A stretch of DNA of 64,000 bases. Origin: an uncultured Candidatus Cloacimonadota bacterium. Its GTDB lineage: Bacteria > Cloacimonadota > Cloacimonadia > Cloacimonadales > TCS61. Below are positions 1,756 to 43,059 of the stretch, piece after piece. Location of the stretch: the NCBI GenBank assembly GCA_964457455.1, contig CAYWJN010000001.1, forward strand, positions 5,648 to 69,647. The letters run 5' to 3'. The first letter of the stretch is position 1, and every line of letters begins with the position of its first letter. Under the pieces are notes generated by a model. The model did no database searches. It was given only the letters and a program-made list of their open reading frames with translations, and was not told the origin of the DNA. A program made the position numbers and the translations under genes.

Positions 1756-2640
1756 ATGGGCACAACAAAAGTATTAGTAATCGGAAAGAATTCCGACATC
1801 GGTCGGAAAACAATTTCTTTATTAAAAAGAAGGCAATTTATAGTTGAAGAACAATCGGGACATGATCTGCTGAACGGAGAAATCATACATCAGTTAATAG
1901 AATGCTATTATATTGAAAGTATAATTTTATTTGTTGGAACAATGACATCGGAAGCAAGTGAATCAATAATATTGCCTTTTACGGATCTCAAAAACAAAGA
2001 TTTTTTGCATTCGTATAAAGTAAATTATTGGTCGGCGGTACTTACAGCAAGATTAGCAAAAATGTTGTTTCAGAAAAAAGGCGGAACAATAACATTTATT
2101 AGTTCTTCTTCATCGATTTGTGGCAGAAAAAATTATTCTTGTTATTCACCAATGAAAGCTGCTCTTATTAATTTAACTCAATGTTTAGCCGAAGATTTAA
2201 AAAAATATAATATCAGGGTAAACTGCTTGAATCCTGCAAGTGTTAATACGAAAATGAGAGATATTTTTGAAGGTGAAAATTGGACAGAAATGTTACAGCC
2301 AATAGATGTCGCTCATCAGATTCTTCCGTTTGTTACGACTAACGATACAGGAGTAATACACCATTTCAGCTATCATCATCCGAATTTTTATTATATCGAA
2401 ACAATGCAAACATACATTCGATTTTATGGTGCTCCGGATTTCATCTATTATAGAAATATGGTGTTCACTATGGATTTTTATGACGAAGCAGGATTAGTTT
2501 TGACTTATGGTAATAAAAAACATGGAAAGATGATTACAGTTAAAACAGTTAACAGGTACAGTTTTCATAGTTATTCTGATGCAGTAGTTGAAATATCTGA
2601 TGCCACAGCGTTCCGGCATGATATAGAATACAGGGAGTAG
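1756..2640 (+). CDS. short-chain dehydrogenase/reductase (SDR) with C-terminal extension
   Basis: Rossmann glycine motif VLVIGKNSDIGRK. Catalytic YxxxK (YSPMKAAL) is followed by NPASVNT. About 90 extra C-terminal residues have no motif. Confidence 0.7.
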   Translation: MGTTKVLVIGKNSDIGRKTISLLKRRQFIVEEQSGHDLLNGEIIHQLIECYYIESIILFVGTMTSEASESIILPFTDLKNKDFLHSYKVNYWSAVLTARLAKMLFQKKGGTITFISSSSSICGRKNYSCYSPMKAALINLTQCLAEDLKKYNIRVNCLNPASVNTKMRDIFEGENWTEMLQPIDVAHQILPFVTTNDTGVIHHFSYHHPNFYYIETMQTYIRFYGAPDFIYYRNMVFTMDFYDEAGLVLTYGNKKHGKMITVKTVNRYSFHSYSDAVVEISDATAFRHDIEYRE

Positions 2641-2720
2641 TTAATGAAGATTAATAATAAAGAATTAAAGATTTATTGCACTGCTAATGGGCAATTCTCC
2701 ATTTTTCGTGTCCCAAATCG

Positions 2721-2759
2721 ACCGATTTTCGGTATAAAACCGGAAAGGAGAAAAAGATG
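2721..2759 (+). promoter_or_regulatory. hairpin + Shine-Dalgarno leader element, copy 2
   Basis: Exact 19-nt core AAAACCGGAAAGGAGAAAA at 2736-2754. It is preceded by imperfect complementary arms (ACCGA/TCGGT, or TTTTCGGT pairing with AACCGGAAA with one bulge). ATG 2757 lies 6 nt after GGAG. Confidence 0.45.
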
Positions 2760-3431
2760 GGTTTTGGGTATTCAATAATGGAAACAAAATATTTGGCAGA
2801 TATACCGGAAGTAGCAAACAAGCATGGCTTTCCCAAAACGCTTACGATAAGGAATGAGATAATACATCTTAAGCATATTTTCACAGAATTGTTTACTAGA
2901 AAATCAGTAGACATTAGAAATATGCTGGAATATCTCAATATGGATATATACAGGTATATGGAGATCATGACAAATAGAATAAGGAAAATACACCATATAT
3001 CAAGAGGCTATGTAAGAGATTGCAATGCAATCTTGAAACACAATCACAACAAGTTTTTTCCAACCATTCAATTATTGGGTGGATTAAACAACATAATAGT
3101 CTTGGATTTTGATGGGGTTGTAACAGATAAAAGGTTTATAGAAATATATGAGTTATGCAACAAGAGGTGCAGAACTGAAATCTGCAGTGCGAACCCGACA
3201 ATTACATCCAAATGGTTCGAGGCAAAAAATATAACAATGCCGAGCAGAATAAATGCAGTAAAGGGAAAAAAAAAGAAGATATACAAAATAATAGAAATTC
3301 AAAAGAAGTATGATAATGTGTTTTATGTTGATGACGAAAAAAAATATCTTGACTATGTATGGGTATTCGGGGTCAAAACATTTTTATGGAACGGAAAAAA
3401 AATAACAAAGCATTCTTTAAAAACTATATAA
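2757..3431 (+). CDS. HAD-superfamily hydrolase-like protein
   Basis: HAD motif I (hhhhDxDx[TV]) appears as IIVLDFDGVVTD. A late acidic motif FYVDDEKK is present. AAAGGAG SD upstream. Confidence 0.55.
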   Translation: MGFGYSIMETKYLADIPEVANKHGFPKTLTIRNEIIHLKHIFTELFTRKSVDIRNMLEYLNMDIYRYMEIMTNRIRKIHHISRGYVRDCNAILKHNHNKFFPTIQLLGGLNNIIVLDFDGVVTDKRFIEIYELCNKRCRTEICSANPTITSKWFEAKNITMPSRINAVKGKKKKIYKIIEIQKKYDNVFYVDDEKKYLDYVWVFGVKTFLWNGKKITKHSLKTI

Positions 3432-3615
3432 CCAAAAGTTCAATCTGCTTGCTATGGCGACTTCATGAATTGGGTGTTTTCACGAATTTTCAATACACAC
3501 AAAATACTAAGAGCCGACTTATAGTCGCTGCCGATTCACAGTCAGTTTCTCAAAGATGTATCTAAATTCGAAGAGGAAGACTGTCTAAATAAACTCACAA
3601 TAAAAAAGGTTGAGA

Positions 3616-6422: not shown

Positions 6423-8435
6423 ATGAAATTTTTTAAAGATCCACTAAATGCAAACGATGTATTTAAAGACATAGTTGTCAAGACGGCTGTTTTGGATTTA
6501 ACGAATGACCGCCCAGATCAATGGAGAGAAGAGATAAGAGAATACATCTCAAATAAATATCCATTTTTGACGGCAGGATTAAAGGAAGTTAAATATAATA
6601 AGATAGATGAGTCAACTGGGGATGCTATTGGATCAATAGTATGGATGGAAGGTAATACATCGATGACTATCCCAGTGATAATTGAAAACAACATCCTCAA
6701 AGATATTGACGCAGCGATATACCAGAATAAAGTTATTCCCATATCGGAGTCTTTTATATTATCTGAAGTGGAGAAGAATCAGGAAATGGGGCAAACTGAA
6801 GAGACTAATGATGTTTCTGATGAGATAGAATTTCTTACAGAAGGGGGATTATTTGATGTTAGTGACCAGACGGGCATAAAAGTAGCAGCCACAATATCCA
6901 CTGTTGCAAGGGTAAGAAATTTGTTAGATAGCAGGGGTGTAAAATTGCCAGAAAATATTGAGAATCTTATTAAGGAGGGGGTAGCAAAGGGTAAAAATGA
7001 TGAAGACAGAATATTAGTGATAAAGAGGAGAGAAATTCCAGAAAAACCATATCATTTTTCTGGAATTATGTTAAAACAAGCCTCTGATGGTAAATATAAA
7101 ATAGAAAGGTTTGAAATGTCTGCAGAAGATTTTAATAAAATTGCTGGATTTGTTGAAGGGGGGTGTGTATATGATTCTAATTCTGATTCTGATTGCCTTG
7201 ATAATAGAACAACCAAATATGTATCAATGATACTGGATAAACAGTTAAAGGATATGCCCAAAATCAAAAAGATAACGGAATCGGGGAATTATCAATATAT
7301 ATTATTTAATGGGATTGGAAAAAGAGGTGTTGTCGTAACCGACCCATTAAAAATATGGGAGACAGGAAAATCTAGAGCGTTGGCTGTTTCTGAAAATACC
7401 TCTGCCCTTCACGAAACGAATGACCCACGAGAATGGATTTATGGCGAGGTATATGGTGGGTCAGACGATTATGAAAATTTAAAAACCAAGTCGCAGGGCT
7501 ATTATTTCGGTGGAATGACACCTGTTGATCTACAAAATGTTCAAGGCAAGGATATAATATTTGAAGCCAGCAGGACAATAACCCTCCCATATAGAGTAGA
7601 AGAGGTAACAAAAACACGACTCGCAAAAGATGGACGCGAAATAGTTCTCTATTATTTAAAATCATATCATGATGGTAGTCATGCGACAGTATGGTTAAAT
7701 AGCGGTATTGATAAAGTGACTAAAGCGGACACTGAAAAAATGATTGCTCAAGGACTAGGGGCGATTGTTAGACCGGGCAGGGATATATATCTTTTGCCGG
7801 AATATTATCGCCCCATATTTCTTCCCGGGAAAAGAATCAAGGATTCAAAAATCAAATCTCAAGTGTCAGACATTATGAAAAATATCCAAACAGATTATCC
7901 TATCAAAACAGCTATTGAGATGGTTGACATGGATGAATACAGGGTGACGGTTCGCAATGGAAGTAGGAAGATTTTTGATGAAACTATGAAAAAAGAGGCT
8001 TCACTCCTGGTTGCCAATTACTTTACTGGGCAAAACGCTGACAGAATAGAAGACTATGATCCTAGTGATATTTATTTGTCAAAATATGCTGGAAATATTA
8101 AAGACATAGAACCAAAACACTATGTGGACTTGTCTGCTATGGATAAATATAGAGGGGATTTTATCAAAACAGCATCGATTCTTTGGCGAGAATGGCCAAT
8201 TGAAAAAGATGCCGAAATAGAGAATGTCATTAATGGACTGATTTCCGCAGAATATGCTGATAAAAAAAATATCGTAAATTCAGAAGAACTGTTGGAACTG
8301 CTGAGTAAAACGCTAAATAAAATAGGGAATGTCTTATTATTGTCCAGAATGTCAAAAACACATTTGTCTGAACCAATATTAACGAAGGCTTTTAAGGCAA
8401 TAACAGGGTTGATTTCTGATATAAAGGGCGAATAA
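6423..8435 (+). CDS. large structural or internal virion protein, unknown function
   Basis: 670-aa ORF with an AAGGAG SD. Contains NLIKEGV, which resembles the proposed processing motif. Confidence 0.7.
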   Translation: MKFFKDPLNANDVFKDIVVKTAVLDLTNDRPDQWREEIREYISNKYPFLTAGLKEVKYNKIDESTGDAIGSIVWMEGNTSMTIPVIIENNILKDIDAAIYQNKVIPISESFILSEVEKNQEMGQTEETNDVSDEIEFLTEGGLFDVSDQTGIKVAATISTVARVRNLLDSRGVKLPENIENLIKEGVAKGKNDEDRILVIKRREIPEKPYHFSGIMLKQASDGKYKIERFEMSAEDFNKIAGFVEGGCVYDSNSDSDCLDNRTTKYVSMILDKQLKDMPKIKKITESGNYQYILFNGIGKRGVVVTDPLKIWETGKSRALAVSENTSALHETNDPREWIYGEVYGGSDDYENLKTKSQGYYFGGMTPVDLQNVQGKDIIFEASRTITLPYRVEEVTKTRLAKDGREIVLYYLKSYHDGSHATVWLNSGIDKVTKADTEKMIAQGLGAIVRPGRDIYLLPEYYRPIFLPGKRIKDSKIKSQVSDIMKNIQTDYPIKTAIEMVDMDEYRVTVRNGSRKIFDETMKKEASLLVANYFTGQNADRIEDYDPSDIYLSKYAGNIKDIEPKHYVDLSAMDKYRGDFIKTASILWREWPIEKDAEIENVINGLISAEYADKKNIVNSEELLELLSKTLNKIGNVLLLSRMSKTHLSEPILTKAFKAITGLISDIKGE

Positions 8436-9713: not shown

Positions 9714-10349
9714 ATGAAGAAATTAGTAATTATTTTGCTTGCGATGTTGTTGGTGACATCGCTATTTGCGAAGGACTTTAAGTCTGCAACTAATCGATTC
9801 TACGGGAAGGTGCAGACGGACAGTACCATGATCACTACTAAAAATGTGGGTACAAAATCTGATAGTGTAGCCTCCGTAGTAGAATATGGCGACGCAAAAT
9901 TCCATGTAACTGAAATTGCAATATCATCTGCCCACTTTGCCGATATACCTGGCGGAGCCGATTTGGCTTTGGGACAGTTACTGTATACTTTCCCCACGGG
10001 GGCAATAGTTGTCAAGGGCGCATATATGAATATTGCTTTGAATGAAAGTGATGGGAATATTACTGCAGACACCCCAGATGTAGGTATTGGAACTACGGTA
10101 GCATCGGGTGTTGTAAATGTGTTGGGCGGAACAGCCGCGTTTGAAAATATTTTAACCGGCCAGACCGCTACAGATTGTGATAGCACTTATACTACGAAAA
10201 CATTGGCATTAGCAGACCCCCTGGAGATTGAGACAGGTGGTGATAAAACAGTATACTTGAATGTCGCTGATGGATGGGCAGCTAGTGGTGAAGATGCATT
10301 GGAATATGTTGGAACAGTTGTGATAGAATGGGTATTACTTAAAGAATAG
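9714..10349 (+). CDS. protein with signal-peptide-like N-terminus
   Basis: MKKLVIILLAMLLVTSLFA-KD resembles a type I signal peptide. AAAGGAG SD upstream and a hairpin directly downstream. Confidence 0.65.
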   Translation: MKKLVIILLAMLLVTSLFAKDFKSATNRFYGKVQTDSTMITTKNVGTKSDSVASVVEYGDAKFHVTEIAISSAHFADIPGGADLALGQLLYTFPTGAIVVKGAYMNIALNESDGNITADTPDVGIGTTVASGVVNVLGGTAAFENILTGQTATDCDSTYTTKTLALADPLEIETGGDKTVYLNVADGWAASGEDALEYVGTVVIEWVLLKE

Positions 10350-10359
10350 CAAAGAAACA

Positions 10360-10384
10360 GGAGGGTGACATAGTGTTGCCCTCC
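10360..10384 (+). terminator. terminator-like hairpin (no T tract)
   Basis: GGAGGGTGAC / GTTGCCCTCC forms a 10-bp stem with two G-U pairs and a 5-nt loop, 11 nt after the stop codon. Confidence 0.4.
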
Positions 10385-10604
10385 ATTCAATAAATAAAGG
10401 GAAAGGTTTTTAGGACTATACATAGAAGGTTGTCATCTTCTCCTGTAAAACTTCCATATGGATTAAAGGGAACAATCGAAAGTATTTTGAGATCTGACAA
10501 AAAAACTTTGAAATATAGGTTTATGCCAAAGGGTATAGATTTCATTAAGACTATAAAAAATAAAGTCCCTAAAAAGTAGAATAATAAATAGGGGGATCAA
10601 TAGG

Positions 10605-11672
10605 ATGAAATGCCCTTGTATCATAAAAACATCGGGAATTAGGAGAATAAGTATGCTTCCAACAATAATTAAGATATCTGCAATAGAGAAGTATTCGTCT
10701 CCCAAATGGATCAAGATGATAAGGTCAGGCAAATTAAGTGAGAAGGCATTAAAAATTCTTGCAAATGCTGGATATAAAGATAGGACAATAAAACATCTTG
10801 GAGTGGGAGGAACAAGAGTCTCTGACTTGGTATTTACTAGTAGGGTGGGTAAAGCTGTTAGAAAAATACCTAATATAGAGGGGGTGTCGAAATATTATAT
10901 TCATGAGCCATATAATAGCCAAGCAAAGGAACATTTTGTATGGAATAAAGTGCAAAAATATTTGTCAAAAAAGAAGATAAAGGTTCCTCGATTGATAAAA
11001 CAAGATGGCCCAATAGGATATTATGAGCATGTTAAAGGTAGGAGCGTTGCTAATAAAGCAAAAAAATTATTTAATAAACTAGACGAATATGGAAAGCAGG
11101 GTGATAGAGTTAGGAGAATTCGGGTAAAGAATGCTAAATTAAGGATGTTAAGGATTCTTAATAAATCACCTATAGATGCTAAAACCATGCGAAAAATAAA
11201 AAGAAAATATCCGAGAATATATGATATGACGAATAGAAATCTTGTTGATAGAACGCTAGTAGACTTTGATATTCTAGGACCCCAAACTTATACAATGGAT
11301 AGAGGACCATCCAAGCATTATCGTGATACTTATAAAGCGTTTGCTAATGGAATGCGTACGACTGAAAACTATAAGAAAACGTTTCCTGGATATTTCAGCA
11401 GAAACAAAAATAAAATAATACCCTCCGTTATATTAGGAGGGGCTTTGGTTGCCGCTGGAATTAGAGAAGCAAAAAATAAAGATAAAAATGGAGTGAATCA
11501 AATCAAAAAAAATGCTATGATAAAATTCTCCGGGATGTTATCAGATATTGCCAGTGCTCGCAAAGCAACTAATGCTAATCCGTCAGAAGCACAGATTAAG
11601 GCAGAAAACTATAAAAAAGTGCCCATAAAGGCGAGAAAATTTATTTCAGGAATTATCAGGAAGATAAGATAA
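10605..11672 (+). CDS. leader-tagged protein-kinase-like protein, paralog A
   Basis: Starts MKCPCIIKTS, then a second degenerate leader MLPTIIKISA. Kinase-like motifs are LGVGGTRVSDLV, GKAVRKIP, YDMTNRN and LVDFD. Ends at NPSEAQIKAENYKK, where paralog B continues. Confidence 0.6.
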   Translation: MKCPCIIKTSGIRRISMLPTIIKISAIEKYSSPKWIKMIRSGKLSEKALKILANAGYKDRTIKHLGVGGTRVSDLVFTSRVGKAVRKIPNIEGVSKYYIHEPYNSQAKEHFVWNKVQKYLSKKKIKVPRLIKQDGPIGYYEHVKGRSVANKAKKLFNKLDEYGKQGDRVRRIRVKNAKLRMLRILNKSPIDAKTMRKIKRKYPRIYDMTNRNLVDRTLVDFDILGPQTYTMDRGPSKHYRDTYKAFANGMRTTENYKKTFPGYFSRNKNKIIPSVILGGALVAAGIREAKNKDKNGVNQIKKNAMIKFSGMLSDIASARKATNANPSEAQIKAENYKKVPIKARKFISGIIRKIR

Positions 11673-11711
11673 CATATTAATGAACAAAAATTATTTAAAG
11701 TAGGCGAACAA

Positions 11712-11834
11712 ATGAAATGTCCTAAAATATTGAAAATTGCCGATGTTGAAGATAGAGGGTTATGGCATTGGCATCCAGATGGTGATCTAAACTGTTCAGG
11801 CACTGTTGTAATCGAATGGGTGTTTGTTAAATAG
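11712..11834 (+). CDS. 40-aa chimeric mini-ORF: leader plus a copy of the C-terminus of the 9714 gene
   Basis: Translation is MKCPKILKIADVEDRGLWHWHPDGDLNCSGTVVIEWVFVK. The tail GTVVIEWVFVK parallels GTVVIEWVLLKE at 10313-10349. Confidence 0.4.
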   Translation: MKCPKILKIADVEDRGLWHWHPDGDLNCSGTVVIEWVFVK

Positions 11835-11836
11835 AA

Positions 11837-11899
11837 TACTGAGGAACCCTTCCCCTTCAGTAGGTGGGCGGTGGTATCAATCTACCGCCTGTTGATTTA
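11837..11899 (+). terminator. two tandem hairpins, terminator-like
   Basis: First hairpin is TACTGAGG / CCTTCAGTA (11837-11862, one bulge). Second is GGCGGTGG / CTACCGCC (11867-11889), followed by TGTTGATTT. Confidence 0.5.
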
Positions 11900-11922
11900 A
11901 AGAGATTGAAAAAGGAGAAATA

Positions 11923-12807
11923 ATGGGAGCATTTAAGACAATAGCTGGAACTACTGCCACCTGCGGCACATTGGGTGGAATGCTCGGTGGGGCAAGTTTA
12001 TGGCAAGGACACCGAAACTACAATAAGTATGTGCGGGGTGGGAGAAAAAACAGATTATCTTTTGGGCAATACATAAAGACGAAATCCGGTAAGGATCTTA
12101 AAGATGCCGCAATAGGGACAGCTATTGGGGGAGCTCTTGTGGGGATGGCAATAGGACCATCGGTGTATCGGCATAAAAGAAGAATGAGAGGGCTTAATGA
12201 AGCAGCAGAAAACATAAGAAGAGGGCTTAATGGAGCAGCAGAAAACATAAGAGGAAGGATGAACCGGGCAATGTGGGAAGATTTAAATAAAAAATATTAT
12301 GAATACTTTAAAAACTTAGGTGGGTTCGCGGTAAAGAGCGGAAATTTAGATAAAGCAATTAAAACGCTAAACATTAATAAATCGTCAGTAAAGACTAAGG
12401 CTCAGGTAAAAAAGATTTTTAGAGCAGCAGCAATGAAAAGCCACCCTGATAAAGGTGGTTCGGAGGATATTATGAAAGAAGTGGTGGGAGCATGGACATC
12501 CATTAAAAACTCAGGGTGGTTCAGTAAACTTGCATATGAGAGAGCACCTTATATACCGAAAACAGCGGTGTCGGGACGACTCGTCACGAATGCGGCGGAT
12601 GTTTCAGGAAAAGCATTTAATGCACTTATTAGGGGTCCGCTCACGAGAAGATTTCGCATGATGAGGAGCCCGAAGACAAGGAAGTATGTATTTAAGTCTC
12701 CAAGAAAATTAGATGAGTTACGTATGAAATACCTAAGAAGGAAATACAGGTTCCAACTCTATAAAAGTAACCCCGAAGCATCTGAATATTTTAAAAAACG
12801 CCACTAA
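11923..12807 (+). CDS. J-domain (DnaJ-like) protein with glycine-rich N-terminus and basic C-terminus
   Basis: KKIFRAAAMKSHPDKGGSEDIMKEV, with HPD at 12442-12450. N-terminal segments are GTLGGMLGGASLW and AIGTAIGGALVGMAIG. Confidence 0.7.
   Translation: MGAFKTIAGTTATCGTLGGMLGGASLWQGHRNYNKYVRGGRKNRLSFGQYIKTKSGKDLKDAAIGTAIGGALVGMAIGPSVYRHKRRMRGLNEAAENIRRGLNGAAENIRGRMNRAMWEDLNKKYYEYFKNLGGFAVKSGNLDKAIKTLNINKSSVKTKAQVKKIFRAAAMKSHPDKGGSEDIMKEVVGAWTSIKNSGWFSKLAYERAPYIPKTAVSGRLVTNAADVSGKAFNALIRGPLTRRFRMMRSPKTRKYVFKSPRKLDELRMKYLRRKYRFQLYKSNPEASEYFKKRH
12187..12252 (+). repeat. 33-nt in-frame tandem duplication (2 copies, 1 mismatch)
   Basis: AGAGGGCTTAATGAAGCAGCAGAAAACATAAGA occurs twice, encoding RGLNEAAENIR and RGLNGAAENIR. 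Confidence 0.9.
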
Positions 12808-12819
12808 AAGAGGTATTAA

Positions 12820-14667
12820 ATGAATTGTCCTGTAATACTGAAGAGAGCTTCTCCAAGATGGGTTAAGATGGTGAGGTCTGGGAAATTAGGAAGAGAGTCG
12901 CTTAAAAGACTGGCGGAAGCTGGGTATAAAGACAGGACGATAAAGCCATTAGGTAGAGGAGCTTTCAGGATCGCCGACCTCGTATTCACAGAAGGTATTG
13001 GAAAAGCTGTTAGAAAAATACCTTTAATAGACAGAAAATCTGCAAGCGATATTATAGGAATATATAAAGCTCAGGCAATGGAGCATAAGGTATGGAATAA
13101 AGCGAGGAAGTTAATGCACAAAAAGGGTATTCCTGTAGCGAAAATGGTAAAGAGAAATAAAGGGATTGGATATTATGAATACATTAAGGGGAGAAAAATT
13201 TCTGATAAAGCGGCAATAATAAAAAAAAATATGGTCCCTAATGAGTATCCAAGAGAGGGGACAGTAGCAGAAAAAATTAGATGGCAAAAAAGAATAATTT
13301 CTATAAACAAGGCAAGAGAAAAAGTTCATAAAATAATTAATGCAAATATAATAAACAAGTCGGACTATAAGAATATTAAAAAAAGGTTTCCTCATCTTAG
13401 AGATACTACCGCTCAAAACACAATAGGAAACACTTTAATAGACTTTGATATTACTAACTATAAGGCATTCCCTACAAACTTGGACATGAAACGTAACATT
13501 AAAAAAGATTCATACAGAGCAATGAGGGAGGCGTTAAATGACAGAATGCCCAATAATATTAAAATAGCAACAATGACCGGAGATATAAATAGGGCTCGAA
13601 AAGATACCAACATTAACCCATCAGATGCCCAAATAAAAGCCGAGAACTACAAAAAAGGGTCATTCAAGTGGAATGGACTGACTATTAAATTGGAGAACCC
13701 AAAGGGATCAACGAGATCCGGAACTGACCCAGATGGTAAATCGTGGTCAATAAAGATGAAATATGATTATGGATACATCTCTAATGCACAGGATGGGAAA
13801 GATGGGGACAAAATTGATGTGTTCATAGGAAGTCATCCAGAAAGTCAGATAGTGTATGTAATTGATCAAGTAGACAAGAACGGTAAATTCGATGAACACA
13901 AGTGTATCCTCGGGGCACTCACTGAAGATGAGGCTAGAAAAACATATCTCGCTAATTATGAGAAGGGATGGAAATGTGGACCGATCACGGCGATGACCGT
14001 AGAGCAATTCAAGGAATGGACTATGAAGGGTAGAACCGGAAGTCCTCTAAATAAACAAAAACTTTTTAAAGTGGGAAAAACAATGAATTGCCCCAGCATT
14101 TTACAAAAAAAGTCTTCCCTAAGGTCTATACTTAAATTAAGACCTTTACTTCGAGAAATAAAGGCGCACAAGATTCCTATAGAGAGGCATTTCATCCCAC
14201 TTAAAAAGATCAATCCCACTCTTAAGAGAATGCTCAATATAGAATATGGGGGAGTCAACTCAGATATTGGGGTAAGAGATTATATTAGATTGCTGCGTGG
14301 CGGGCAATTTCTCAAAGGTAGAGGAAATGATTTATCTATATCTATTCCTAAAGTGAAAAATGTTGCTGTCAGGAAGATCGTCTCTATGCTTCCAAGAAAA
14401 AATGAGCCGGCAGCAGTGTTGTCTCACGAACTGGGGCATGCTGTGAAGAGCAAAAAAGGATTATTGGATATTCTTAAGAAACAAACATATAACCAGAAAT
14501 ATTGGAAGAAGCCTACTGCTATGAACGAGTATTTATCAGAAGCGGAAGCAAGTGCTTTTGGATTGAAGACATTAAATAAAATGAAAGATAAGATTCCATT
14601 AAATATGCCAAAGATAAAGAAAATACTATATAAAAAGTTAAAAATTTATGGGGAGGATTTGTTGTGA
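12820..14667 (+). CDS. leader-tagged multidomain protein: kinase-like + conserved phage/plasmid domain + internal leader + HExxH metallopeptidase-like module
   Basis: Starts MNCPVILKRA. Kinase-like motifs are LGRGAFRIADLV, GKAVRKIP, HLRDTTAQN and LIDFD. The middle domain reads AENYKKGSFKWNGLTIKLENPKGSTRSG...YGYI...DGDKIDVFIG. A second leader MNCPSILQKK lies at 14083. HELGH is at 14425-14439. Confidence 0.65.
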   Translation: MNCPVILKRASPRWVKMVRSGKLGRESLKRLAEAGYKDRTIKPLGRGAFRIADLVFTEGIGKAVRKIPLIDRKSASDIIGIYKAQAMEHKVWNKARKLMHKKGIPVAKMVKRNKGIGYYEYIKGRKISDKAAIIKKNMVPNEYPREGTVAEKIRWQKRIISINKAREKVHKIINANIINKSDYKNIKKRFPHLRDTTAQNTIGNTLIDFDITNYKAFPTNLDMKRNIKKDSYRAMREALNDRMPNNIKIATMTGDINRARKDTNINPSDAQIKAENYKKGSFKWNGLTIKLENPKGSTRSGTDPDGKSWSIKMKYDYGYISNAQDGKDGDKIDVFIGSHPESQIVYVIDQVDKNGKFDEHKCILGALTEDEARKTYLANYEKGWKCGPITAMTVEQFKEWTMKGRTGSPLNKQKLFKVGKTMNCPSILQKKSSLRSILKLRPLLREIKAHKIPIERHFIPLKKINPTLKRMLNIEYGGVNSDIGVRDYIRLLRGGQFLKGRGNDLSISIPKVKNVAVRKIVSMLPRKNEPAAVLSHELGHAVKSKKGLLDILKKQTYNQKYWKKPTAMNEYLSEAEASAFGLKTLNKMKDKIPLNMPKIKKILYKKLKIYGEDLL

Positions 14668-14957
14668 GATGTCCAGGGATAATTAAAGAAGCCTTAACTT
14701 CAACATTGTTAGGGAGAGCGTCTACCAAAGCAATGACTAAAGCAATATTCTCTCATAATTTTATTAACGACCTTTCTAAATATAGAAGATACTACCCTGT
14801 CAGATCAATAAAACTACAAGTCAAGGCAATCCCTTATCAGGTTAACTACATGAGACAGGCAAAGAAATTTGAAAAGGCTAGGCAGATAAAGATGGTTAAG
14901 AAATTAAAAAGAGATGCAAGCGATTTGATATCTATAATAAAGAGGAGAATGAAATGA
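14664..14957 (+). CDS. leader-tagged small basic protein
   Basis: GTG start overlaps the previous stop (GTGA), with GGGGAGGA SD upstream. Starts MRCPGIIKEA. Confidence 0.6.
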   Translation: MRCPGIIKEALTSTLLGRASTKAMTKAIFSHNFINDLSKYRRYYPVRSIKLQVKAIPYQVNYMRQAKKFEKARQIKMVKKLKRDASDLISIIKRRMK

Positions 14958-15205
14958 AATGTCCAGAGATAATTAAGGAAGCCTATGTACCGGGATTAAG
15001 GACGGGTATTGGTATGTTGGGTGGTGGTATAGGAGCATCTATGCTAAATAGCTCATCCCAAAATAAAAGGATTAAAAAAGGTAAACAAAAAAAATACAAT
15101 CCTTTGTCTACAATAGGTGCATTTATGGGAGGAAGTTTGTTAGGTGCAGGAGCTGGCGGTTATGCAGATTATAAGAGAATGGGGAAATGGATTAAACAAC
15201 CGTAA
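14954..15205 (+). CDS. leader-tagged glycine-zipper mini-protein
   Basis: Starts MKCPEIIKEA. Contains GIGMLGGGIGASML and IGAFMGGSLLGAGAGGY. Confidence 0.6.
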   Translation: MKCPEIIKEAYVPGLRTGIGMLGGGIGASMLNSSSQNKRIKKGKQKKYNPLSTIGAFMGGSLLGAGAGGYADYKRMGKWIKQP

Positions 15206-15219
15206 GTAAGAAATATTTA

Positions 15220-16839
15220 ATGAATAAAGCAATAACTCGGAGCGATTTATACCAAGCATGGTTTAAACTTGATGGAGATGCCCTCTCTTTCAAATATTTA
15301 CCCTTTTGGATACCTATAATTAATACTTCTCGATTTACCCTTGAATCTCCTCAAGTTCAACGCCGGGTGATTCTAAAATGTTCGCGTAAAGTAGCCAAAT
15401 CAACAAATGCCGCAATTCTTGCTACCGGATTCGCGATTGAACATAAATATTTTAATACTATTATAACCTTACCTACCGATGCCCAGGTGAGTCGGTTTTC
15501 AACAGACATTCTGAAGGGGATTAACCGGGATTCTGTGGTCACGGATGTTATTTATTACGACCCTCGTTTAAACGAAAGACAAGTAAAAAACAAATCCTAC
15601 TTGACCGGCTCAAGAATACTCTTAGCTAATATTTATGTGTCGCCACTATCTGCTCGGGGAATTATCGGTGATTGCTATATTGAGGACGAGATGCAAGATA
15701 CTCCTGAACAGCACGCTAGTATTGTTGAGTTTGCGCTGAAAAGGTCTAAATATAAATATATGCTTAAGACGGGAACGCCGATGCAACCGGAGAATAGAAT
15801 CCAAACGACATTCGATGATTCAACAGGATGTGAATGGGCGATTAAATGTAGGGCATGCGGCCATTGGAATGTCGGGCTTGGCATAAAGAATATGGGTCTT
15901 AAGGGTATTATCTGCGAAAAATGTCATAAGAGAATTAGCACATGGTGGGGAGAATGGGTAGAGGCGCATCCCGGAAGACCTTTCGAGGGATTTTCAATTA
16001 ACGAGTTGATGATCCCCCCCGAAGCACCCTTTGCTTCAGATTGGGATACAATTTTATACGATTATAATAAAAAAGATGAGGTTGATTTCCATAATGAAGT
16101 TCTAGGGTTATCATTTTCAGACAATATACATCCTATAACATTGCAGAGGGTAGTATATTTATGCGATAGCGATAGGGAATACGTAAAAGATCCTTCTGAA
16201 ATTACTAAAAAAATGAAGGAGTATTCTTTTGCGGCATTGGATTGGGCTGTAGAAGATGACCCGCGGAAAAAATTGTCGAAAATAAAGTCCTATACCATGC
16301 TCACGATAGGATCATACGATCCTGGGTCGCGCAAGATTAATATAAATTTCGTCAGAAGATATTATGGAAAGGGAGAAGATGGATCTCCAGATGATATAAT
16401 TAACGATGTTGTCTATTGGGTAAACCACTTTAATGTATTGATTCTCGGAATGGATTATGGTGCTGGGCACAAAGAAAATATCCGGATAATAGAAATACTT
16501 GGTTTTAAGAGGACGATGGAATTTGAATATGTAGGAGAGTTGGCTGAGAAGGTGGCATATTATCCAGAATTCGAGAAATGGGTAATGGCGAGATCAACGG
16601 TAATGACTGGATTAATAGACGATATTGTGAGAAAAGGTGAATACAAATTTGCAAAATATCCTGGGGAGACCTCAGAATATGCAAAAGACTTGACAAACGT
16701 CTATCGATATCACGATACTGGAAAAAGAAAAATCAGATATGGGAAGTCAGGCACAGATGACTTTTTCCAGAATTTGGTTATATTGAGATTAGTGAAGAAA
16801 TACCATTTTGACGAATTAGAATATAGAGTAAAAAAATAA
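15220..16839 (+). CDS. terL: terminase large subunit
   Basis: Deviant Walker A LKCSRKVAKST and Walker B CYIEDEMQD. The C-terminal half has acidic motifs (AALDWA, LGMDYGAG). A CxxC...CxxC insertion lies at 15847-15924. Position is upstream of the portal and head genes. Confidence 0.7.
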   Translation: MNKAITRSDLYQAWFKLDGDALSFKYLPFWIPIINTSRFTLESPQVQRRVILKCSRKVAKSTNAAILATGFAIEHKYFNTIITLPTDAQVSRFSTDILKGINRDSVVTDVIYYDPRLNERQVKNKSYLTGSRILLANIYVSPLSARGIIGDCYIEDEMQDTPEQHASIVEFALKRSKYKYMLKTGTPMQPENRIQTTFDDSTGCEWAIKCRACGHWNVGLGIKNMGLKGIICEKCHKRISTWWGEWVEAHPGRPFEGFSINELMIPPEAPFASDWDTILYDYNKKDEVDFHNEVLGLSFSDNIHPITLQRVVYLCDSDREYVKDPSEITKKMKEYSFAALDWAVEDDPRKKLSKIKSYTMLTIGSYDPGSRKININFVRRYYGKGEDGSPDDIINDVVYWVNHFNVLILGMDYGAGHKENIRIIEILGFKRTMEFEYVGELAEKVAYYPEFEKWVMARSTVMTGLIDDIVRKGEYKFAKYPGETSEYAKDLTNVYRYHDTGKRKIRYGKSGTDDFFQNLVILRLVKKYHFDELEYRVKK

Positions 16840-21246: not shown

Positions 21247-21963
21247 ATGAGCAAAGTATTCGCGGGTATGAAACCTATAAAAATAAAAGGATATGCTGGG
21301 AATCTGACAACAGATGTAAATCAACTTGTTTGGCCACATAATATGGAATATATTTATGGTTCTGTATCAGAAACATTATATTTGTCCAGCTCTGATAACG
21401 GAGATGATCAGGATTATAAAGTGACAGGGGTAGATGCTAATTATGTTTATCAAGAGGTAGAGGTTACATCTTCGGGGCAAACCGGGGTAAAAATTGGAGA
21501 AGATAATTCTTGGAGAAGGGTGTTTAGTATAGAGAATATAGGAGACACCAATAATGCTGGCGACATATATATCGGTACCGAATCTGCTCCGACAGGCGGA
21601 ATACCTAATGATAACAACATTAGAGGTATGATAGAAACCGGAAAAAATAAGAGTGAGATGGCTCTCTATACAGTGCCCAATAAGAAAAGGATCTTCATTA
21701 AAAAGATTATTCTGTCAGAAGCGGGTGCAGATGATGGGAGTTCGCTTATGTCTTTGAATGTAAGACCTTTTGGGAAAGTATTTAAACGGGAATTATCTGT
21801 GTCCCTCCTGAATGGAGTGGCAGAAATAGATTTAGAAGAACCAATAATAGTTGAGAGTAAATCAGACATTGAAATACAAGTAGTCAGCGGTGCGTCTAAT
21901 CCGGGTAAAATAACAGTATTAGTTGAAGCTGGAATAAATCCATTATTCTATGCAGGAGAATAA
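21247..21963 (+). CDS. hypothetical structural protein
   Basis: 238-aa beta-rich ORF with an AAGGAG SD. Confidence 0.6.
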   Translation: MSKVFAGMKPIKIKGYAGNLTTDVNQLVWPHNMEYIYGSVSETLYLSSSDNGDDQDYKVTGVDANYVYQEVEVTSSGQTGVKIGEDNSWRRVFSIENIGDTNNAGDIYIGTESAPTGGIPNDNNIRGMIETGKNKSEMALYTVPNKKRIFIKKIILSEAGADDGSSLMSLNVRPFGKVFKRELSVSLLNGVAEIDLEEPIIVESKSDIEIQVVSGASNPGKITVLVEAGINPLFYAGE

Positions 21964-22846
21964 CGTGCCCAGTGTCAGTCAGAACCAACAAAAATTAATG
22001 GGACTTGTCTATGCAGCCAAAAAGGGCGAAATACCAGTCTCTGCATTACATGGTCCGGCTAGGCAGATATACGAGAAAATGCCCAAAGAAAAAATCAGGG
22101 AATTTGCTAAAACTAAGAGAAAGGGGCTTCCAAAAAAGGCTTCACTACAAAGTGAGGTTATGAGGCAAATGGCCATTAGAATAGGAGGAGGTAGCGCAGT
22201 AGGGGGTGGGCTATCATATGCTGGTACTCTTAAAAACCAATGGGGAAGGTATAAAAAAAAGAATCCATCAGCGACATTTAAACAATTTTATTCTAATAGA
22301 ACACGACGAAATAAAAATGAACTGAAAAAATCTGTGGGTGTGGGTATACGATTAGGGATGTTGGCAGGATCTTTTATCCCGTACAATCACGCAAAATTGC
22401 GGGGCGCATCATATGATGGTTTCAGGCGTGCATATCAACAATACTCAGGGTCGCCGAACATTCCAAAGGCTACCATAAAAAAGAATTTAAGTACTTTCGG
22501 ATTAAAGATGAAAGGAGTTAACTCAAAAAGTCAGGTAAAACAAGCTTATTGGGCAACGATGAGGAAAGTGCATCCCGACAAAGGAGGCAATGAGGAAATT
22601 GCTAAAACAATCAATAGAGCATTTGATGATGTGTCAAAAACGGATTGGTTTAAGAAATTAGCGTATCCCAATATATTGAAGATGGCGCGGGGCAAATCTA
22701 TGCATTTACTTATAGAAAAGAAGGCTTTATGTCCATGGGTATTAAAGGAAGCAACCAAAAGGTGGATACAATCAGCAAATAAATCCATTAAAAGTCGAGG
22801 TACGGAAGGTGTGTGTTCTGGAGCAAACTTTGGTGGACCTACTTGA
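21950..22846 (+). CDS. J-domain protein paralog with leader-like motif near the C-terminus
   Basis: KQAYWATMRKVHPDKGGNEEIAKTI, with HPD at 22571-22579. LCPWVLKEATKRW lies at 22727 onward. An alternative GTG start at 21965 follows GGAG. Confidence 0.7.
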   Translation: MQENNVPSVSQNQQKLMGLVYAAKKGEIPVSALHGPARQIYEKMPKEKIREFAKTKRKGLPKKASLQSEVMRQMAIRIGGGSAVGGGLSYAGTLKNQWGRYKKKNPSATFKQFYSNRTRRNKNELKKSVGVGIRLGMLAGSFIPYNHAKLRGASYDGFRRAYQQYSGSPNIPKATIKKNLSTFGLKMKGVNSKSQVKQAYWATMRKVHPDKGGNEEIAKTINRAFDDVSKTDWFKKLAYPNILKMARGKSMHLLIEKKALCPWVLKEATKRWIQSANKSIKSRGTEGVCSGANFGGPT

Positions 22847-22855
22847 CCACCAAAG
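22828..22855 (+). terminator. hairpin spanning the stop codon of the J-domain gene
   Basis: CTTTGGTGG / CCACCAAAG forms a 9-bp stem with a 10-nt loop. No T tract follows. Confidence 0.35.
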
Positions 22856-22917
22856 ACAAGGCGCTATAATTTGGCGAAAGTCTTCCGGAGGATGGCTCAA
22901 AAAAGAAAGGAGAAGTA

Positions 22918-23616
22918 ATGGATGTTAAGATAATCGTGCTTATTATAGTAGTGCTAACTGGCAGCATTTATCACTTTGCCTATCGAAATGGTGTAAACGA
23001 TACAATCGTTAGGCAAGAGGAAGACCTTGTGTTTATGGATAGCAAGGTGGATTCCTTGACGGAGAGTATAAGTGCGGTTACTCATCAGGCGAATAATTGG
23101 AAATCGATAGCAGATTCGCTATTTACTAATCCCAAGATTATCAAGGATACAATATCAATTATTGTCACAGAAGATGGAGAAACTATTTATGATACTCTCA
23201 TGGTGGCTAATGCTGCTTCCCACACATTAGATTATAGTGGCGATAATGCAATAAAAGTGCGAAAACTCTTTACAGCCGAAGGGGATACTCTGCAATTTGA
23301 TATTCATGAGTGGATAGATATTGATGTAAATCTAGATAAAGATGGAGTAATGTATATCTTTGATAAATTGAGATATCAGATAAAAAATGTGAGGCTCAAT
23401 TGGGAAAGAAAATATATTAAAACCGTTGATAAAGGACAGATATTCTTCGTAGGGGAGACCCAATATGATTATAATCCAGAAGTTAATAATAATAAACAGA
23501 GATTAGATGGTTTTGTAGGCATAGATATCATCTTTGATGAAAGATATGGAATTGGATTAAAGGGGAATACAACAACGGTTGGACTGATGTTTAAATATAA
23601 ACTAATAGGATGGTAA
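22918..23616 (+). CDS. membrane-anchored protein (N-terminal TM)
   Basis: Hydrophobic N-terminus MDVKIIVLIIVVLTGSIY. AAAGGAG SD upstream. Confidence 0.6.
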   Translation: MDVKIIVLIIVVLTGSIYHFAYRNGVNDTIVRQEEDLVFMDSKVDSLTESISAVTHQANNWKSIADSLFTNPKIIKDTISIIVTEDGETIYDTLMVANAASHTLDYSGDNAIKVRKLFTAEGDTLQFDIHEWIDIDVNLDKDGVMYIFDKLRYQIKNVRLNWERKYIKTVDKGQIFFVGETQYDYNPEVNNNKQRLDGFVGIDIIFDERYGIGLKGNTTTVGLMFKYKLIGW

Positions 23617-24110
23617 ATATGATAAATTATGATAAGGGTCTATTGTATAGTAAAGCATTAAAGGCCGGACAATCTGTTGTGATGAAAACGCCAACAATAA
23701 CTAATTCCCGGGCAAGATATGCACCAGCAATAACTAAGAGAAAAACCGATAATGGGATTAAGTTGGCATGCCCAATAGTACTGAAGGAAGCGGGAATAGT
23801 TGCCGCATTAAAAGCATTTAAACCCATCGCTAAACATATATGGAAAAATCCATATACAAAAGCAGGTATTGTTGGTGGATCTGTCGGTGGAATATCATCG
23901 GGCATAAGCGGTGGAAATGTTGTCAAAGGAACTATAGGTGGTGCTGCAATCGGAGTTGGAGGAAGGTTTGGCTACAAGAAGTTAAAAGCAATAAAACCAA
24001 AAGGTATAAAGATAAAACATAATATAATTAAGAATAAAAAATATCCTGCACACATAGTGTTAGGTAAACAACCCTTAGTTGGTAAGCCCTACGTTGTGTC
24101 TGGAGTTTAG
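23610..24110 (+). CDS. glycine-zipper protein with internal leader motif
   Basis: LACPIVLKEA at 23763-23792. TTG 23763 after GGGA could be an alternative start. Contains GIVGGSVGGISSGISGGNVVKGTIGGAAIGVGG. Confidence 0.55.
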   Translation: MVNMINYDKGLLYSKALKAGQSVVMKTPTITNSRARYAPAITKRKTDNGIKLACPIVLKEAGIVAALKAFKPIAKHIWKNPYTKAGIVGGSVGGISSGISGGNVVKGTIGGAAIGVGGRFGYKKLKAIKPKGIKIKHNIIKNKKYPAHIVLGKQPLVGKPYVVSGV

Positions 24111-24124
24111 AAAGGAGAAATAAG

Positions 24125-24394
24125 ATGAAATGTCCACAAATAGTTAAAATGGCCGTTCTCGTAGGTCCTGCCATCGATCTGTCGTTATTTGGAACACCTT
24201 CTTTGATAGGTCATGGAGAAGGTAAGAAAAAGGGATTTAGGGAAGGAGCTATCAGCAGAAAAGAAAATCCGGAACGACTGAAATTTAAAAATTACGCTGG
24301 GCTACTAACGATACCTGGTTCAATAGGTTATCATCTTGGATATATGTCAGGTTGGAGACGAGCACAAACATTAAAAAAAGATAAATCTAGTTAA
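24125..24394 (+). CDS. leader-tagged small protein
   Basis: Starts MKCPQIVKMA, with an AAAGGAG SD. Confidence 0.6.
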   Translation: MKCPQIVKMAVLVGPAIDLSLFGTPSLIGHGEGKKKGFREGAISRKENPERLKFKNYAGLLTIPGSIGYHLGYMSGWRRAQTLKKDKSS

Positions 24395-24436
24395 GTTTTA
24401 AGATGATTAGGCATATAAAACGAGAGGAAAAATAAG

Positions 24437-24568
24437 ACGAAATGTCCTGCATCTGTAAAAATGGCAGCAACTAAAACCGTCTTACAGCCACATCAGGAAA
24501 GGACTGTTAGAAAATCAATGAATAACAATGTTCTTATCCAACACGGTTTAGGATCAGTCAAAAAATAA
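24437..24568 (+). pseudogene. decayed leader-family copy (ACG in place of ATG)
   Basis: GAGAGGAAAAATAAG ACG AAA TGT CCT keeps the SD, spacing and KCP codons but has no canonical start. The frame reads TKCPASVKMAATKTVLQPHQERTV...GLGSVKK then stop. Confidence 0.45.
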
Positions 24569-24648
24569 TTTTGGAGAATATATGATTAAATATAAGGAAT
24601 ATACGATCCAAGACGATATACTGGATTGAAAAAATAAAGGAGAATAAA

Positions 24649-25128
24649 ATGAAATGTCCAAGAATAGTAAAAGAAGCCATTACATTGATGAGAGTATCCA
24701 ACAAAGGTGAGTATAGAGGGTATACCCCAACAAAAGCAAAAGAAATAACAAGCGATAAATATCTGGAATTATCTGATGAATTGAGGAACAAAAGGATAAA
24801 TAGATATAGGAATCTGCCTAAAGTATACAAAAAAAATAGGCAGGTCGCTGGAGGGATATTAGGAGGAGGACTGGGTGGCACAATATCTAGTAGTCTTATG
24901 TCCGGGTCAAAAATAAAAGGAAAATACAAATTACCTATTATATTGGGATCGTCGCTATTAAGTGGAATAGGATTAGGTGCAGCATTTACTCCAAATAAAA
25001 GGAGAATGGAGAGAATGCGAGCATATGCTGATAAAAAAACTGATATAGAAAATTTCAGGAGACATTATCAAAGACCGGGGATAAAGAAAAATCCTAAAAA
25101 CTATAAATACTATATGAGAGATACATAG
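24649..25128 (+). CDS. leader-tagged glycine-zipper protein
   Basis: Starts MKCPRIVKEA. Contains GGILGGGLGGTISSSLMSGS and LLSGIGLGAAF. Confidence 0.65.
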   Translation: MKCPRIVKEAITLMRVSNKGEYRGYTPTKAKEITSDKYLELSDELRNKRINRYRNLPKVYKKNRQVAGGILGGGLGGTISSSLMSGSKIKGKYKLPIILGSSLLSGIGLGAAFTPNKRRMERMRAYADKKTDIENFRRHYQRPGIKKNPKNYKYYMRDT

Positions 25129-25140
25129 GAAATAGAAATA

Positions 25141-25236
25141 GTGAGATGTCCCATTGTAGTTAAAGAGGCGGTGATCAGCACTATATTACAACCTCTATTT
25201 GTTGCAAAGATCAAAAGAGAAGAAAGATATCATTGA
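25141..25236 (+). CDS. 31-aa leader-only mini-ORF
   Basis: GTG start after AGGAAA. Translation is MRCPIVVKEAVISTILQPLFVAKIKREERYH. Confidence 0.35.
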   Translation: MRCPIVVKEAVISTILQPLFVAKIKREERYH

Positions 25237-25280
25237 CCAATTATACGAAGTTATGGAAAGAGCAAATTAAAGGAGAAATA

Positions 25281-25661
25281 ATGAAACGTCCATTAATAAT
25301 TAAAGAAGCAATAGTCAAAGATATTGCAGACATCGAAGACGAAATATCAACTAATCCACAATATACCAAAAGTCAGGCAATAAAAGACTACAAGACTCAT
25401 GCTTTTGATAATATTGAGCAGGGACGATTGCCTGCTGTTCTATTAGGGGCTGGGATAGGGGCACTATCTTCGCTGATAGGACCAAAATCTTTAATGAAGA
25501 CTATGCGTCATGTAGGTGCAGGAGGACTATCTGGGGGGGCAGCAAAAGTTTTATCTGAAATTGATGATTTAAAAGCAAAAGCATTCCCCAGTGTATTACA
25601 GAGAGATGCTGAAAAGTATGTTAATTCATTAATAAAATATTATAGGGCGCCCCGAATATAA
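25281..25661 (+). CDS. leader-variant (RP for CP) glycine-zipper protein
   Basis: Track ORF is 25233-25661. ATG 25281 follows AAAGGAG. Starts MKRPLIIKEA and contains LLGAGIGALSSLIG and VGAGGLSGGAAKV. Confidence 0.6.
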   Translation: MKRPLIIKEAIVKDIADIEDEISTNPQYTKSQAIKDYKTHAFDNIEQGRLPAVLLGAGIGALSSLIGPKSLMKTMRHVGAGGLSGGAAKVLSEIDDLKAKAFPSVLQRDAEKYVNSLIKYYRAPRI

Positions 25662-43058: not shown

Positions 43059-43059
43059 T

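Follow-up and report, generated by a model that had tools for sequence, protein, structure and literature searches.

What does a long open reading frame (ORF) encode when the short leader peptide at its start recurs, in frame, two thirds of the way along: one protein, several fused genes or a polyprotein? The question is raised by the ORF at 12820-14667 of the window, i.e. the whole stretch of 64,000 nucleotides analysed here (contig CAYWJN010000001.1, assembly GCA_964457455.1, uncultured Candidatus Cloacimonadota bacterium). The window stems from an uncultivated tailed phage, a myovirus; the + strand carries every gene and the G+C content is ~0.37. A first-pass annotation, made from the letters alone, proposed that either two cargo genes had been fused or that a polyprotein is cut at the internal leader to release a zincin-like protease. 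With good confidence we conclude that ORF 12820-14667 is a fusion of three cassettes into a protein of the polyvalent type, in which the leader forms the joint.

The 615-amino acid (aa) ORF was real. Its translation ran through 615 open codons with no internal stop, and the identical product was present in four assemblies from two samples (JGI and ENA contigs, 65-81 kb). A fifth, short JGI contig (P0001) was continuous across the second junction. The source samples are JGI 3300013118 and 3300013119. Since the same protein was found in these contigs, an assembly artefact was ruled out. The ORF has a good Shine-Dalgarno sequence (-7.1 kcal/mol), its stop overlaps the GTG start (14664) of the next leader-tagged gene, and it lies beside the terminase gene. 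A promoter and terminator scan of 10300-15300 gave no signal above background inside the ORF.

Relatives were gathered via homologues of the large terminase TerL (n = 28) and by a scan for the DNA pattern of the leader. Searches of viral contigs found no relatives, whether the query was the whole protein, TerL or the capsid protein, and a 12-kb megablast query had zero DNA-level relatives among 50,697 phage records. In the following, P and L numbers denote homologous proteins and related contig loci; 'window B' is ORF 12820-14667 and 'window A' is paralog A (10605-11672). In the relatives the modules were separate leader-tagged genes (Table 1). Therefore, ORF 12820-14667 is a lineage-specific fusion of three cassettes; among the relatives examined the fused three-module state was found in the window phage only. 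The split genes thus bore out the fusion suggested in the first-pass annotation, yet three genes took part and not two. In L011 and L030 the free-standing kinase-like gene is flanked by large genes (643-746 aa), whereas in L005 it lies upstream of the terminase; these differing positions fit a mobile cassette.

Both joints of the fusion were recognisable. At junction 1, between the first and the middle module, codons 13546-13569 read MPNNIKIA. They aligned with MKCPGIIKEALLKS of the free-standing L026 InPase gene and with ATGCCCCCCCC..IVKLSG of L005. Junction 1 thus holds the fossil start codon and leader of the InPase gene. In L005 and L006 a run of 8 C (8157-8164), the same in two assemblies, directly precedes the InPase gene; with 9 C the upstream ORF (MTKKEFLEQLSKTIRHRYGMPPP) would run into IVKLSG-InPase. 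Homopolymer error, slippery site and phase-variable tract are all possible explanations of this run.

At the second junction the reappearance of the leader at 14083 was as first described: the ATG is codon 422 and the frame continues MNCPSILQKKS. All four versions of this junction (window B and window A of the window phage, L005 and L026; three phages in total) had an InPase tail followed by an in-frame leader-like motif. At the DNA level the four are homologous through the leader and no further than just past it, and the sequence beyond differs in each. Because homology ends right after it, the leader behaves like a recombination joint where one C-terminal module was exchanged for another. 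The InPase-leader junction is ancestral in the clade and older than the fusion in ORF 12820-14667. A second, independent fusion of carrier, leader and cargo was present at L019:1730-2131, where DUF3008 is followed by an in-frame MKCPEIIKEA and then by cargo; the same cargo is a free-standing tagged 67-aa gene in L005 (L005:7823-8026). The DUF3008/J-domain protein of the window (21950-22846) also has an internal leader copy, ALCPWVLKEAT, near its C-terminus.

Paralog A bears on the history of the fusion. It had been described as stopping exactly at AENYKK, with the loss of everything from the second domain onward. Homology does stop at AENYKK, but the ORF continues for 17 codons, and the second part of the claim did not hold: after a single stop the same frame gives NEQKLFKVGEQ-MKCPKILKIA. 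Since InPase tail and leader persist after the stop, the InPase core was lost by an internal deletion, and 17 codons plus a stop now occupy its place. Paralog A is a decayed duplicate of the fusion. Its leaders stand in tandem, MKCPCIIKTSG and, 16 codons on, MLPTIIKISA (10605-10690); a duplicated KEA element was also seen in P0031 and L030 (MKCPGMIKEAIYKEASP). The entire paralog A cassette is bracketed by a 40-bp direct repeat (10311-10348, 11799-11838), after which a terminator-like hairpin follows (11870-11889). Repeats, mini-ORF and hairpin look as though a cassette had been inserted or duplicated here. Directly upstream of this variable cargo region lies the gene 9714-10349. Its 211-aa product has a signal-peptide-like N-terminus (MKKLVIILLAMLLVTSLFA), is conserved in L005 and had no family match.

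Table 1. Features of ORF 12820-14667, its surroundings and its counterparts in relatives (window positions unless a locus is named).
Feature	Position	Strand	Details
Whole ORF (window B)	12820..14667	+	615 aa + stop, 70.3 kDa, pI 10.1
N-terminal leader	12820..12852	+	MNCPVILKRAS; variant of the clade leader, Arg replacing Glu
Module 1	12820..13545	+	aa 1-242; orphan family; kinase-type motifs invariant in 4 members; fold unverified
LGRGAFR	12949-12969	+	Gly loop motif, module 1
AVRKIP	13006-13023	+	beta3 Lys motif, module 1
AMEHKVW	13075-13095	+	E88, alphaC Glu, module 1
GYYEYIKG	13168-13191	+	module 1 motif
HLRDTTAQN	13393-13419	+	RD..N, catalytic-loop motif, module 1
LIDFDI	13435-13452	+	DFD, DFG-type motif, module 1
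Junction 1	13546..13581	+	fossil start codon and decayed leader of InPase gene; ATG CCC AAT AAT ATT AAA = MPNNIKIATMTG
InPase domain	13624..14022	+	Pfam PF18823, aa 269-401
Conserved InPase tail	14050..14082	+	NKQKLFKVGKT; includes weak Shine-Dalgarno-like GGGA
Internal second leader	14083..14115	+	MNCPSILQKKS; in frame, aa 422-432
Module 3, zincin-like	14083..14664	+	aa 422-615; HELGH, Glu helix
HELGH	14425-14439	+	aa 536-540
Glu helix	14527-14562	+	EYLSEAEASAFG, aa 570-581
Leader starts	10605, 10653, 11712, 12820, 14083, 14664, 14954, 22724, 23763, 24125, 24649, 25141, 25281; also 6195	+	
Paralog A (window A)	10605..11672	+	tandem double leader, kinase-like module (41% identity), linker, InPase start
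Remnant 3' of paralog A	11679..11837	+	same frame; InPase tail NEQKLFKVGEQ, then mini-ORF
Chimeric mini-ORF	11712-11837	+	leader MKCPKILKIA + last ~30 aa of a copy of gene 9714-10349, L005-type
TerL, large terminase	15220-16839	+	
Major-capsid candidate	30099-31106	+	weak match
Tail-sheath-like gene	33539-35581	+	
L005/L006, leader + kinase-like gene	L005:5447-6172		241 aa, 66% identical (TerL 73% identical)
L005/L006, InPase gene			245 aa, 75% identical; 2 kb from kinase-like gene; no zincin
L026, InPase gene			189 aa; canonical leader MKCPGIIKEAL
L011, L030, leader + kinase-like genes	L011:10001-10732; L030:11084-11854		free-standing
L012 (P0034), zincin module			free-standing, 187 aa
Second junction, window B			KLFKVGKT-MNCPSILQKKS, then zincin module
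Second junction, window A			KLFKVGEQ-MKCPKILKIAD, then 31 residues
Second junction, L005/L025			ELFKVS-MIKMPAILSKAM, then Gly-rich tail
Second junction, L026			KLFKVGY-LKCPEIIKVK, then stop codon, two codons on

The middle module was the firmest of the three. The first-pass annotation had named an inorganic-pyrophosphatase-like family for it; the sequence it quoted was located in ORF 12820-14667 and the family was confirmed as Pfam InPase (PF18823; E 1e-50, 171.5 bits against a cut-off of 26.8, profile positions 1-134 of 135). The active site of the domain comprises four conserved acidic residues, and Iyer et al. defined it as specific to phage-type polyvalent proteins (PMC5512222). The motifs ENPKG, YGYI, DGDxIDVF and FDEHK are kept in the window; ENPKG, DGDxIDVF, DQ and FDEHK were identical across the alignments with gp3 of Bacteroides phage BS-TP4, MT836673, L005 and L026. 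The L005 orthologue is also recorded as Pfam InPase family. With tblastn the domain was found in 461 phage records, one carrier being the 5,391-aa BS-TP4 gp3, and according to PHROG matches it sits within giant virion or DarB-like proteins and also in minor head proteins. Two tblastn matches (H1, H5) which reached into module 3 were rejected; they consisted of the InPase tail (K.K.F..YKSV) plus unrelated sequence.

The C-terminal module carries HELGH at 14425-14439 and the downstream Glu helix EYLSEAEASAFG at aa 570-581, both as first annotated. Among 5.8 billion clustered proteins module 3 had no relative besides its own sequence, and an exhaustive HMMER search over 1.84 billion representatives yielded a single genuine homologue, the HExxH protein P0034. 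HELGHAV and E..AS.FG were unchanged between the two despite 33-39% identity. A full-length MAFFT alignment placed P0034 wrongly on the N-terminus and was discarded. Because it has one homologue only, compared with 28 for TerL, the zincin is accessory. Peptidase_M91 matched isolated module 3 with 25.0 bits, equal to its cut-off of 25, and the full-length protein with 23.3 bits; the remaining weak Pfam matches were all to metallopeptidase families (M48, DUF6782, M78, Zn_peptidase_2). The Pfam scan of module 3 reported no model specific to the zincins of polyvalent proteins. Thus, the zincin-like character assigned in the first-pass annotation stood with respect to the motifs and an M91 score at the threshold, yet that score is borderline. 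We accept module 3 as putatively zincin-like at the level of motif and threshold only.

Module 1 belongs to a small orphan family with three further members, P0030, P0031 and paralog A. G45xG47, K66 (AVRK), E88, D195-N200 and D208-F-D210 were invariant in 4/4 members. In hhalign alignments these motifs were in register with PKA, PknB, CDK2, ERK2 and Src. The module ends soon after DFD, as do the C-lobe-less kinases of polyvalent proteins.

The leader itself was far from a chance pattern. CPx[ILV][ILV][KQ] had 15 matches on the + strand (three frames) and none on the - strand; 0.68 matches were expected in six frames, and the maximum in 200 Markov simulations was 3. At least 11 copies stand at ORF starts or in frame within ORFs. 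In the form M[KR]CPxI[IV]KEA (9-10 residues) the leader heads at least 10 genes of the window, whose products are mostly small and basic and often Gly-rich or hydrophobic. The tagged genes form two clusters in the head module, 10605-15205 and 22724-25320, near the terminase, portal and capsid genes. The conserved residues are encoded by differing synonymous codons; therefore, selection acts on the leader peptide. Small genes of related contigs begin with the same tag, many of them in L005, L018-L020, L026 and L030, and more distant relatives have a variant of their own, e.g. [IV]P[VL][IV]IKQAA in L007. Most N-terminal copies end I-K-E-A (IIKE|A). The capsid candidate starts MNIDNTQLIKEAND, with I-K-E|A 11 residues from the N-terminus, which is where it should lie if the capsid protein is trimmed by the same protease.

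A precedent is the capsid targeting sequence of phage T4, MKTYQEFIAE. Mullaney and Black reportedly dealt with the T4 internal proteins and this sequence in 1996. Diverse internal proteins carry the 10-residue sequence; the protease gp21 removes it by a cut after L/I-x-E, and replacement of the acidic P1 Glu blocks cutting but not targeting (PMC9026906, PMC3012670). In both cases a peptide of about 10 residues is shared by many small, basic, fast-evolving proteins, unrelated to each other and encoded in the head module, and most leaders of the window clade also end I-x-E followed by Ala, in line with the gp21 rule. An analogous route for loading varied proteins into the capsid may exist here, and the leader is probably a T4-like capsid targeting and processing tag. 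In contrast to T4, MKCPxIIKEA has no sequence relation to the targeting sequence, and in-frame copies of the tag are also found within proteins, behind InPase or DUF3008. A gp21-like protease was not detected. Moreover, although most copies read I-K-E-A, an L/I-x-E site is absent from the end of both leaders of ORF 12820-14667 (ILKRAS, ILQKKS), neither of which contains Glu.

The following sequence of events would account for these data. Three cassettes, an orphan module with kinase motifs, a polyvalent-type InPase and a small HExxH zincin-like module, fused in frame and left a decayed leader at the kinase-InPase joint and a well-preserved one at the InPase-zincin joint. By analogy with T4, the N-terminal leader would take the basic 70-kDa protein into the prohead. 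The packaged protein would enter the host together with the DNA, and its three enzyme modules would act early on host targets or nucleotides. Judged from the position in the head module, the pI of 10.1 and the shared leader, the protein is rather likely to be packaged and delivered. Most likely one polypeptide would be packaged, without a cut by a prohead protease at aa 421/422; the chances that the internal leader escapes this protease appear about even. Self-processing at a later stage by its own zincin may occur, as proposed for polyvalent proteins.

The polyprotein of the first-pass annotation has to be weighed at this point. A maturation protease would cut at the internal leader, and maybe at the N-terminal one too, and free a kinase-InPase piece and the zincin. 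The internal leader is complete, its peptide is conserved while synonymous codons differ from those of the N-terminal copy, and it is better kept than the younger leader at junction 1. Leader motifs also occur within other head-module proteins (DUF3008 proteins of the window, L005, L007 and L019), where they follow each phage's own leader type, and the I-K-E|A of most leaders and of the capsid candidate start matches the L/I-x-E rule of gp21. However, the internal copy reads ILQKKS, and all four post-InPase leaders lack Glu (QKK, KIA, SKA, KVK), the loss of which blocks processing in T4. Together with the Glu-less N-terminal leader this argues mildly against cutting by a T4-type Glu-specific protease. 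In L026 the stop two codons past the motif leaves nothing to release, and a protease was not identified among the head-module candidates. Hence we consider cleavage at the internal leader unlikely, though it is the strongest competitor of an uncut fusion. A broader idea, that one 9-10-residue peptide serves as capsid tag, as recombination joint behind carriers (InPase, DUF3008) and as the internal protease site at which the polyprotein is dismantled, is doubtful. If true, a single tag would serve both the construction and the dismantling of polyvalent phage proteins.

Might the HExxH module be the peptidase that removes leaders from phage cargo proteins? It was the sole recognisable protease-like sequence found in the head module. 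Yet known prohead proteases are serine proteases, the module has one homologue compared with 28 for TerL, and none was found in L005, which shares the leader. We consider this role very improbable. As a general leader peptidase of the clade the zincin was rejected, because relatives with the same leader are without it.

Several observations weigh against the explanation given here. The zincin assignment barely reaches the Pfam threshold. None of the four module 1 family members matched Pfam at E<=10; NCBIfam scans of the full-length protein, P0031 and P0034 gave no match, PDB profile searches with modules 1 and 3 nothing relevant, and tblastn of both modules against the 50,697 phage records nothing at E<=1. 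With hhalign, module 1 scored P 0.08 against the five canonical kinases, and 45 of 150 block shuffles scored as high. Since this is no better than shuffled controls, module 1 was not filed as a kinase. Of the 'kinase-like' region in the first-pass annotation all motifs were present, yet nothing statistical stands behind the name; from the motifs, the odds that module 1 is a kinase seem roughly even. AlphaFold2 models of module 1 (4-sequence alignment, pLDDT, i.e. predicted local distance difference test, 39) and module 3 (2-sequence alignment, pLDDT 40) failed. Foldseek with these models against the PDB gave no match at E<0.001 in either case; because the models had failed, these searches were uninformative and no conclusions on folds were drawn. 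No prohead protease was found: candidates of 662 aa (25674-27662) and 238 aa (21247-21963) had no Pfam, NCBIfam or PDB match, and the sole PHROG match was that of the latter to phrog_8198, function unknown.

The remaining two adverse points concern the DNA around the joints, and each leads to an alternative. First, the Shine-Dalgarno sequence at the internal ATG 14083 is weak but not negligible, and this start could give a separate, leader-tagged 194-aa zincin beside the 615-aa fusion. Window B, window A and L005 all retain the ATG at this joint, and the codons of the InPase tail (AAAGTGGGAAAAACA) are similar to the ribosome-binding region found in other cassettes. Anti-Shine-Dalgarno pairing (-4.7 kcal/mol) exceeded that of 85% of internal in-frame ATGs yet was weaker than at 73% of real gene starts in the window (median -7.8). 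L026 has TTG at this position with a stop almost directly after it, and an internal promoter or terminator signal was not above background. Such a nested gene is rather improbable. Second, five of the five leaders in 10605-14115 depart from the KEA consensus, and recombination scars surround them; some loss of function is possible. The fusion might then be recombination debris that leader-mediated shuffling produced recently, neutral or already decaying and without a function selected in the single polypeptide. The scars at 10.3-14.7 kb (InPase-core-deleted paralog, chimeric mini-ORF, 40-bp direct repeat) and the restriction of the fused state to the window phage would fit. On the other hand, the 1,845-nt ORF is intact in an AT-rich genome. 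InPase motifs, HExxH/Glu motifs and the invariant residues of module 1 are all kept in comparison with homologues at 33-75% identity, the ribosome-binding site at the start is good and the stop is coupled to the next gene. We give the debris explanation little credence and retain the three-cassette fusion.

How does the fusion relate to known systems? In polymorphic toxins such as Rhs and CdiA a short conserved demarcation motif separates the constant N-terminal part from a variable C-terminal module. Likewise, a constant InPase is followed here by the motif KLFKVG-x-[M/L]xCPxI[IL] and by unrelated C-terminal sequences, with DNA homology ending just after the motif. Unlike in these toxins, immunity genes are absent, the variable parts consist of phage cargo modules and not of toxins, and the motif is the same tag which heads free-standing genes. 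Peptidase_M91 (NleD-type), M48 and M78 zincins share with module 3 the HExxH helix followed by a helix with a conserved Glu; unlike NleD-type enzymes module 3 scores at the borderline and has no relation to type III secretion.

The closest class is that of the polyvalent proteins, among whose domains are InPase, a zincin 'hub' domain and truncated kinases (PMC5512222). They are recognised by at least two domains of this repertoire in one phage polypeptide; ORF 12820-14667 combines InPase with a zincin-like HExxH domain. As in that class, one polypeptide combines several unrelated effector-type domains and its gene lies among late/virion genes, there are stand-alone versions as well as cassette-like neighbours, and module 1 may correspond to the C-lobe-less kinase of Bacteroidetes/Verrucomicrobia phages (PMC5512222). 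The differences are the very small size, three modules and 615 aa compared with up to 15 domains and thousands of residues, and the lack of matches to polyvalent kinase or zincin models, as only InPase and Peptidase_M91 reached the Pfam cut-off in the window protein. Further, modules are delimited here by short leader copies, a feature not described for the class, although the cassette idea has been raised for it (PMC5512222). ORF 12820-14667 is a compact member of the known polyvalent class; distinctive is a tag resembling a capsid targeting sequence, which delimits modules and marks the breakpoints of homology. The ejection proteins of the phiKZ-like phages SPN3US and phiKZ are head-internal and processed at a short motif ending in Glu, as the tagged proteins here may be, but their propeptides are mostly 111-254 aa long and not a shared 10-mer, and no sequence relationship was detectable (PMC10052503).

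Polyvalent proteins are thought to be front-line weapons injected with the phage DNA, and their mosaic assembly has mostly been conjecture. Here one small clade displays free tagged cassettes, a fresh fusion with a well-preserved leader, a joint that looks older and has a decayed leader, and a paralog with a deleted module. This suggests a concrete route to polyvalent proteins, i.e. recombination at a shared tag. If the tag directs capsid loading, it would be a natural, portable address label for the packaging of foreign proteins in a phage other than T4. The two orphan modules, possibly a minimal kinase and a small zincin, are candidate new enzymes of early host takeover or anti-defence.

Two sets of neighbouring genes complete the picture. 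As in phiKZ-like phages, relatives of the window phage encode multisubunit-RNA-polymerase-like genes, seen as GRHGNK (beta-like), GDFDGD (beta'-like) and an Rpb1 domain 5 match. The pieces lie at L026:164-1288 and 2516-3517, with tagged cargo genes of L026 between these two, and at L011:17798-20149. The window has a sigma-factor-like gene at 43030-43701 (phrog_351, E 2e-13). Finally, the window encodes two J-domain-like proteins with an intact HPDKGG, one at 11923-12807 (HPD 12442-12450; Pfam DnaJ 22.7 bits, below threshold), the other the DUF3008 protein at 21950-22846 (HPD 22571-22579; 21.7 bits, below threshold); for their L005 counterpart a DnaJ match is on record. These head-module proteins may be injected co-chaperone mimics.

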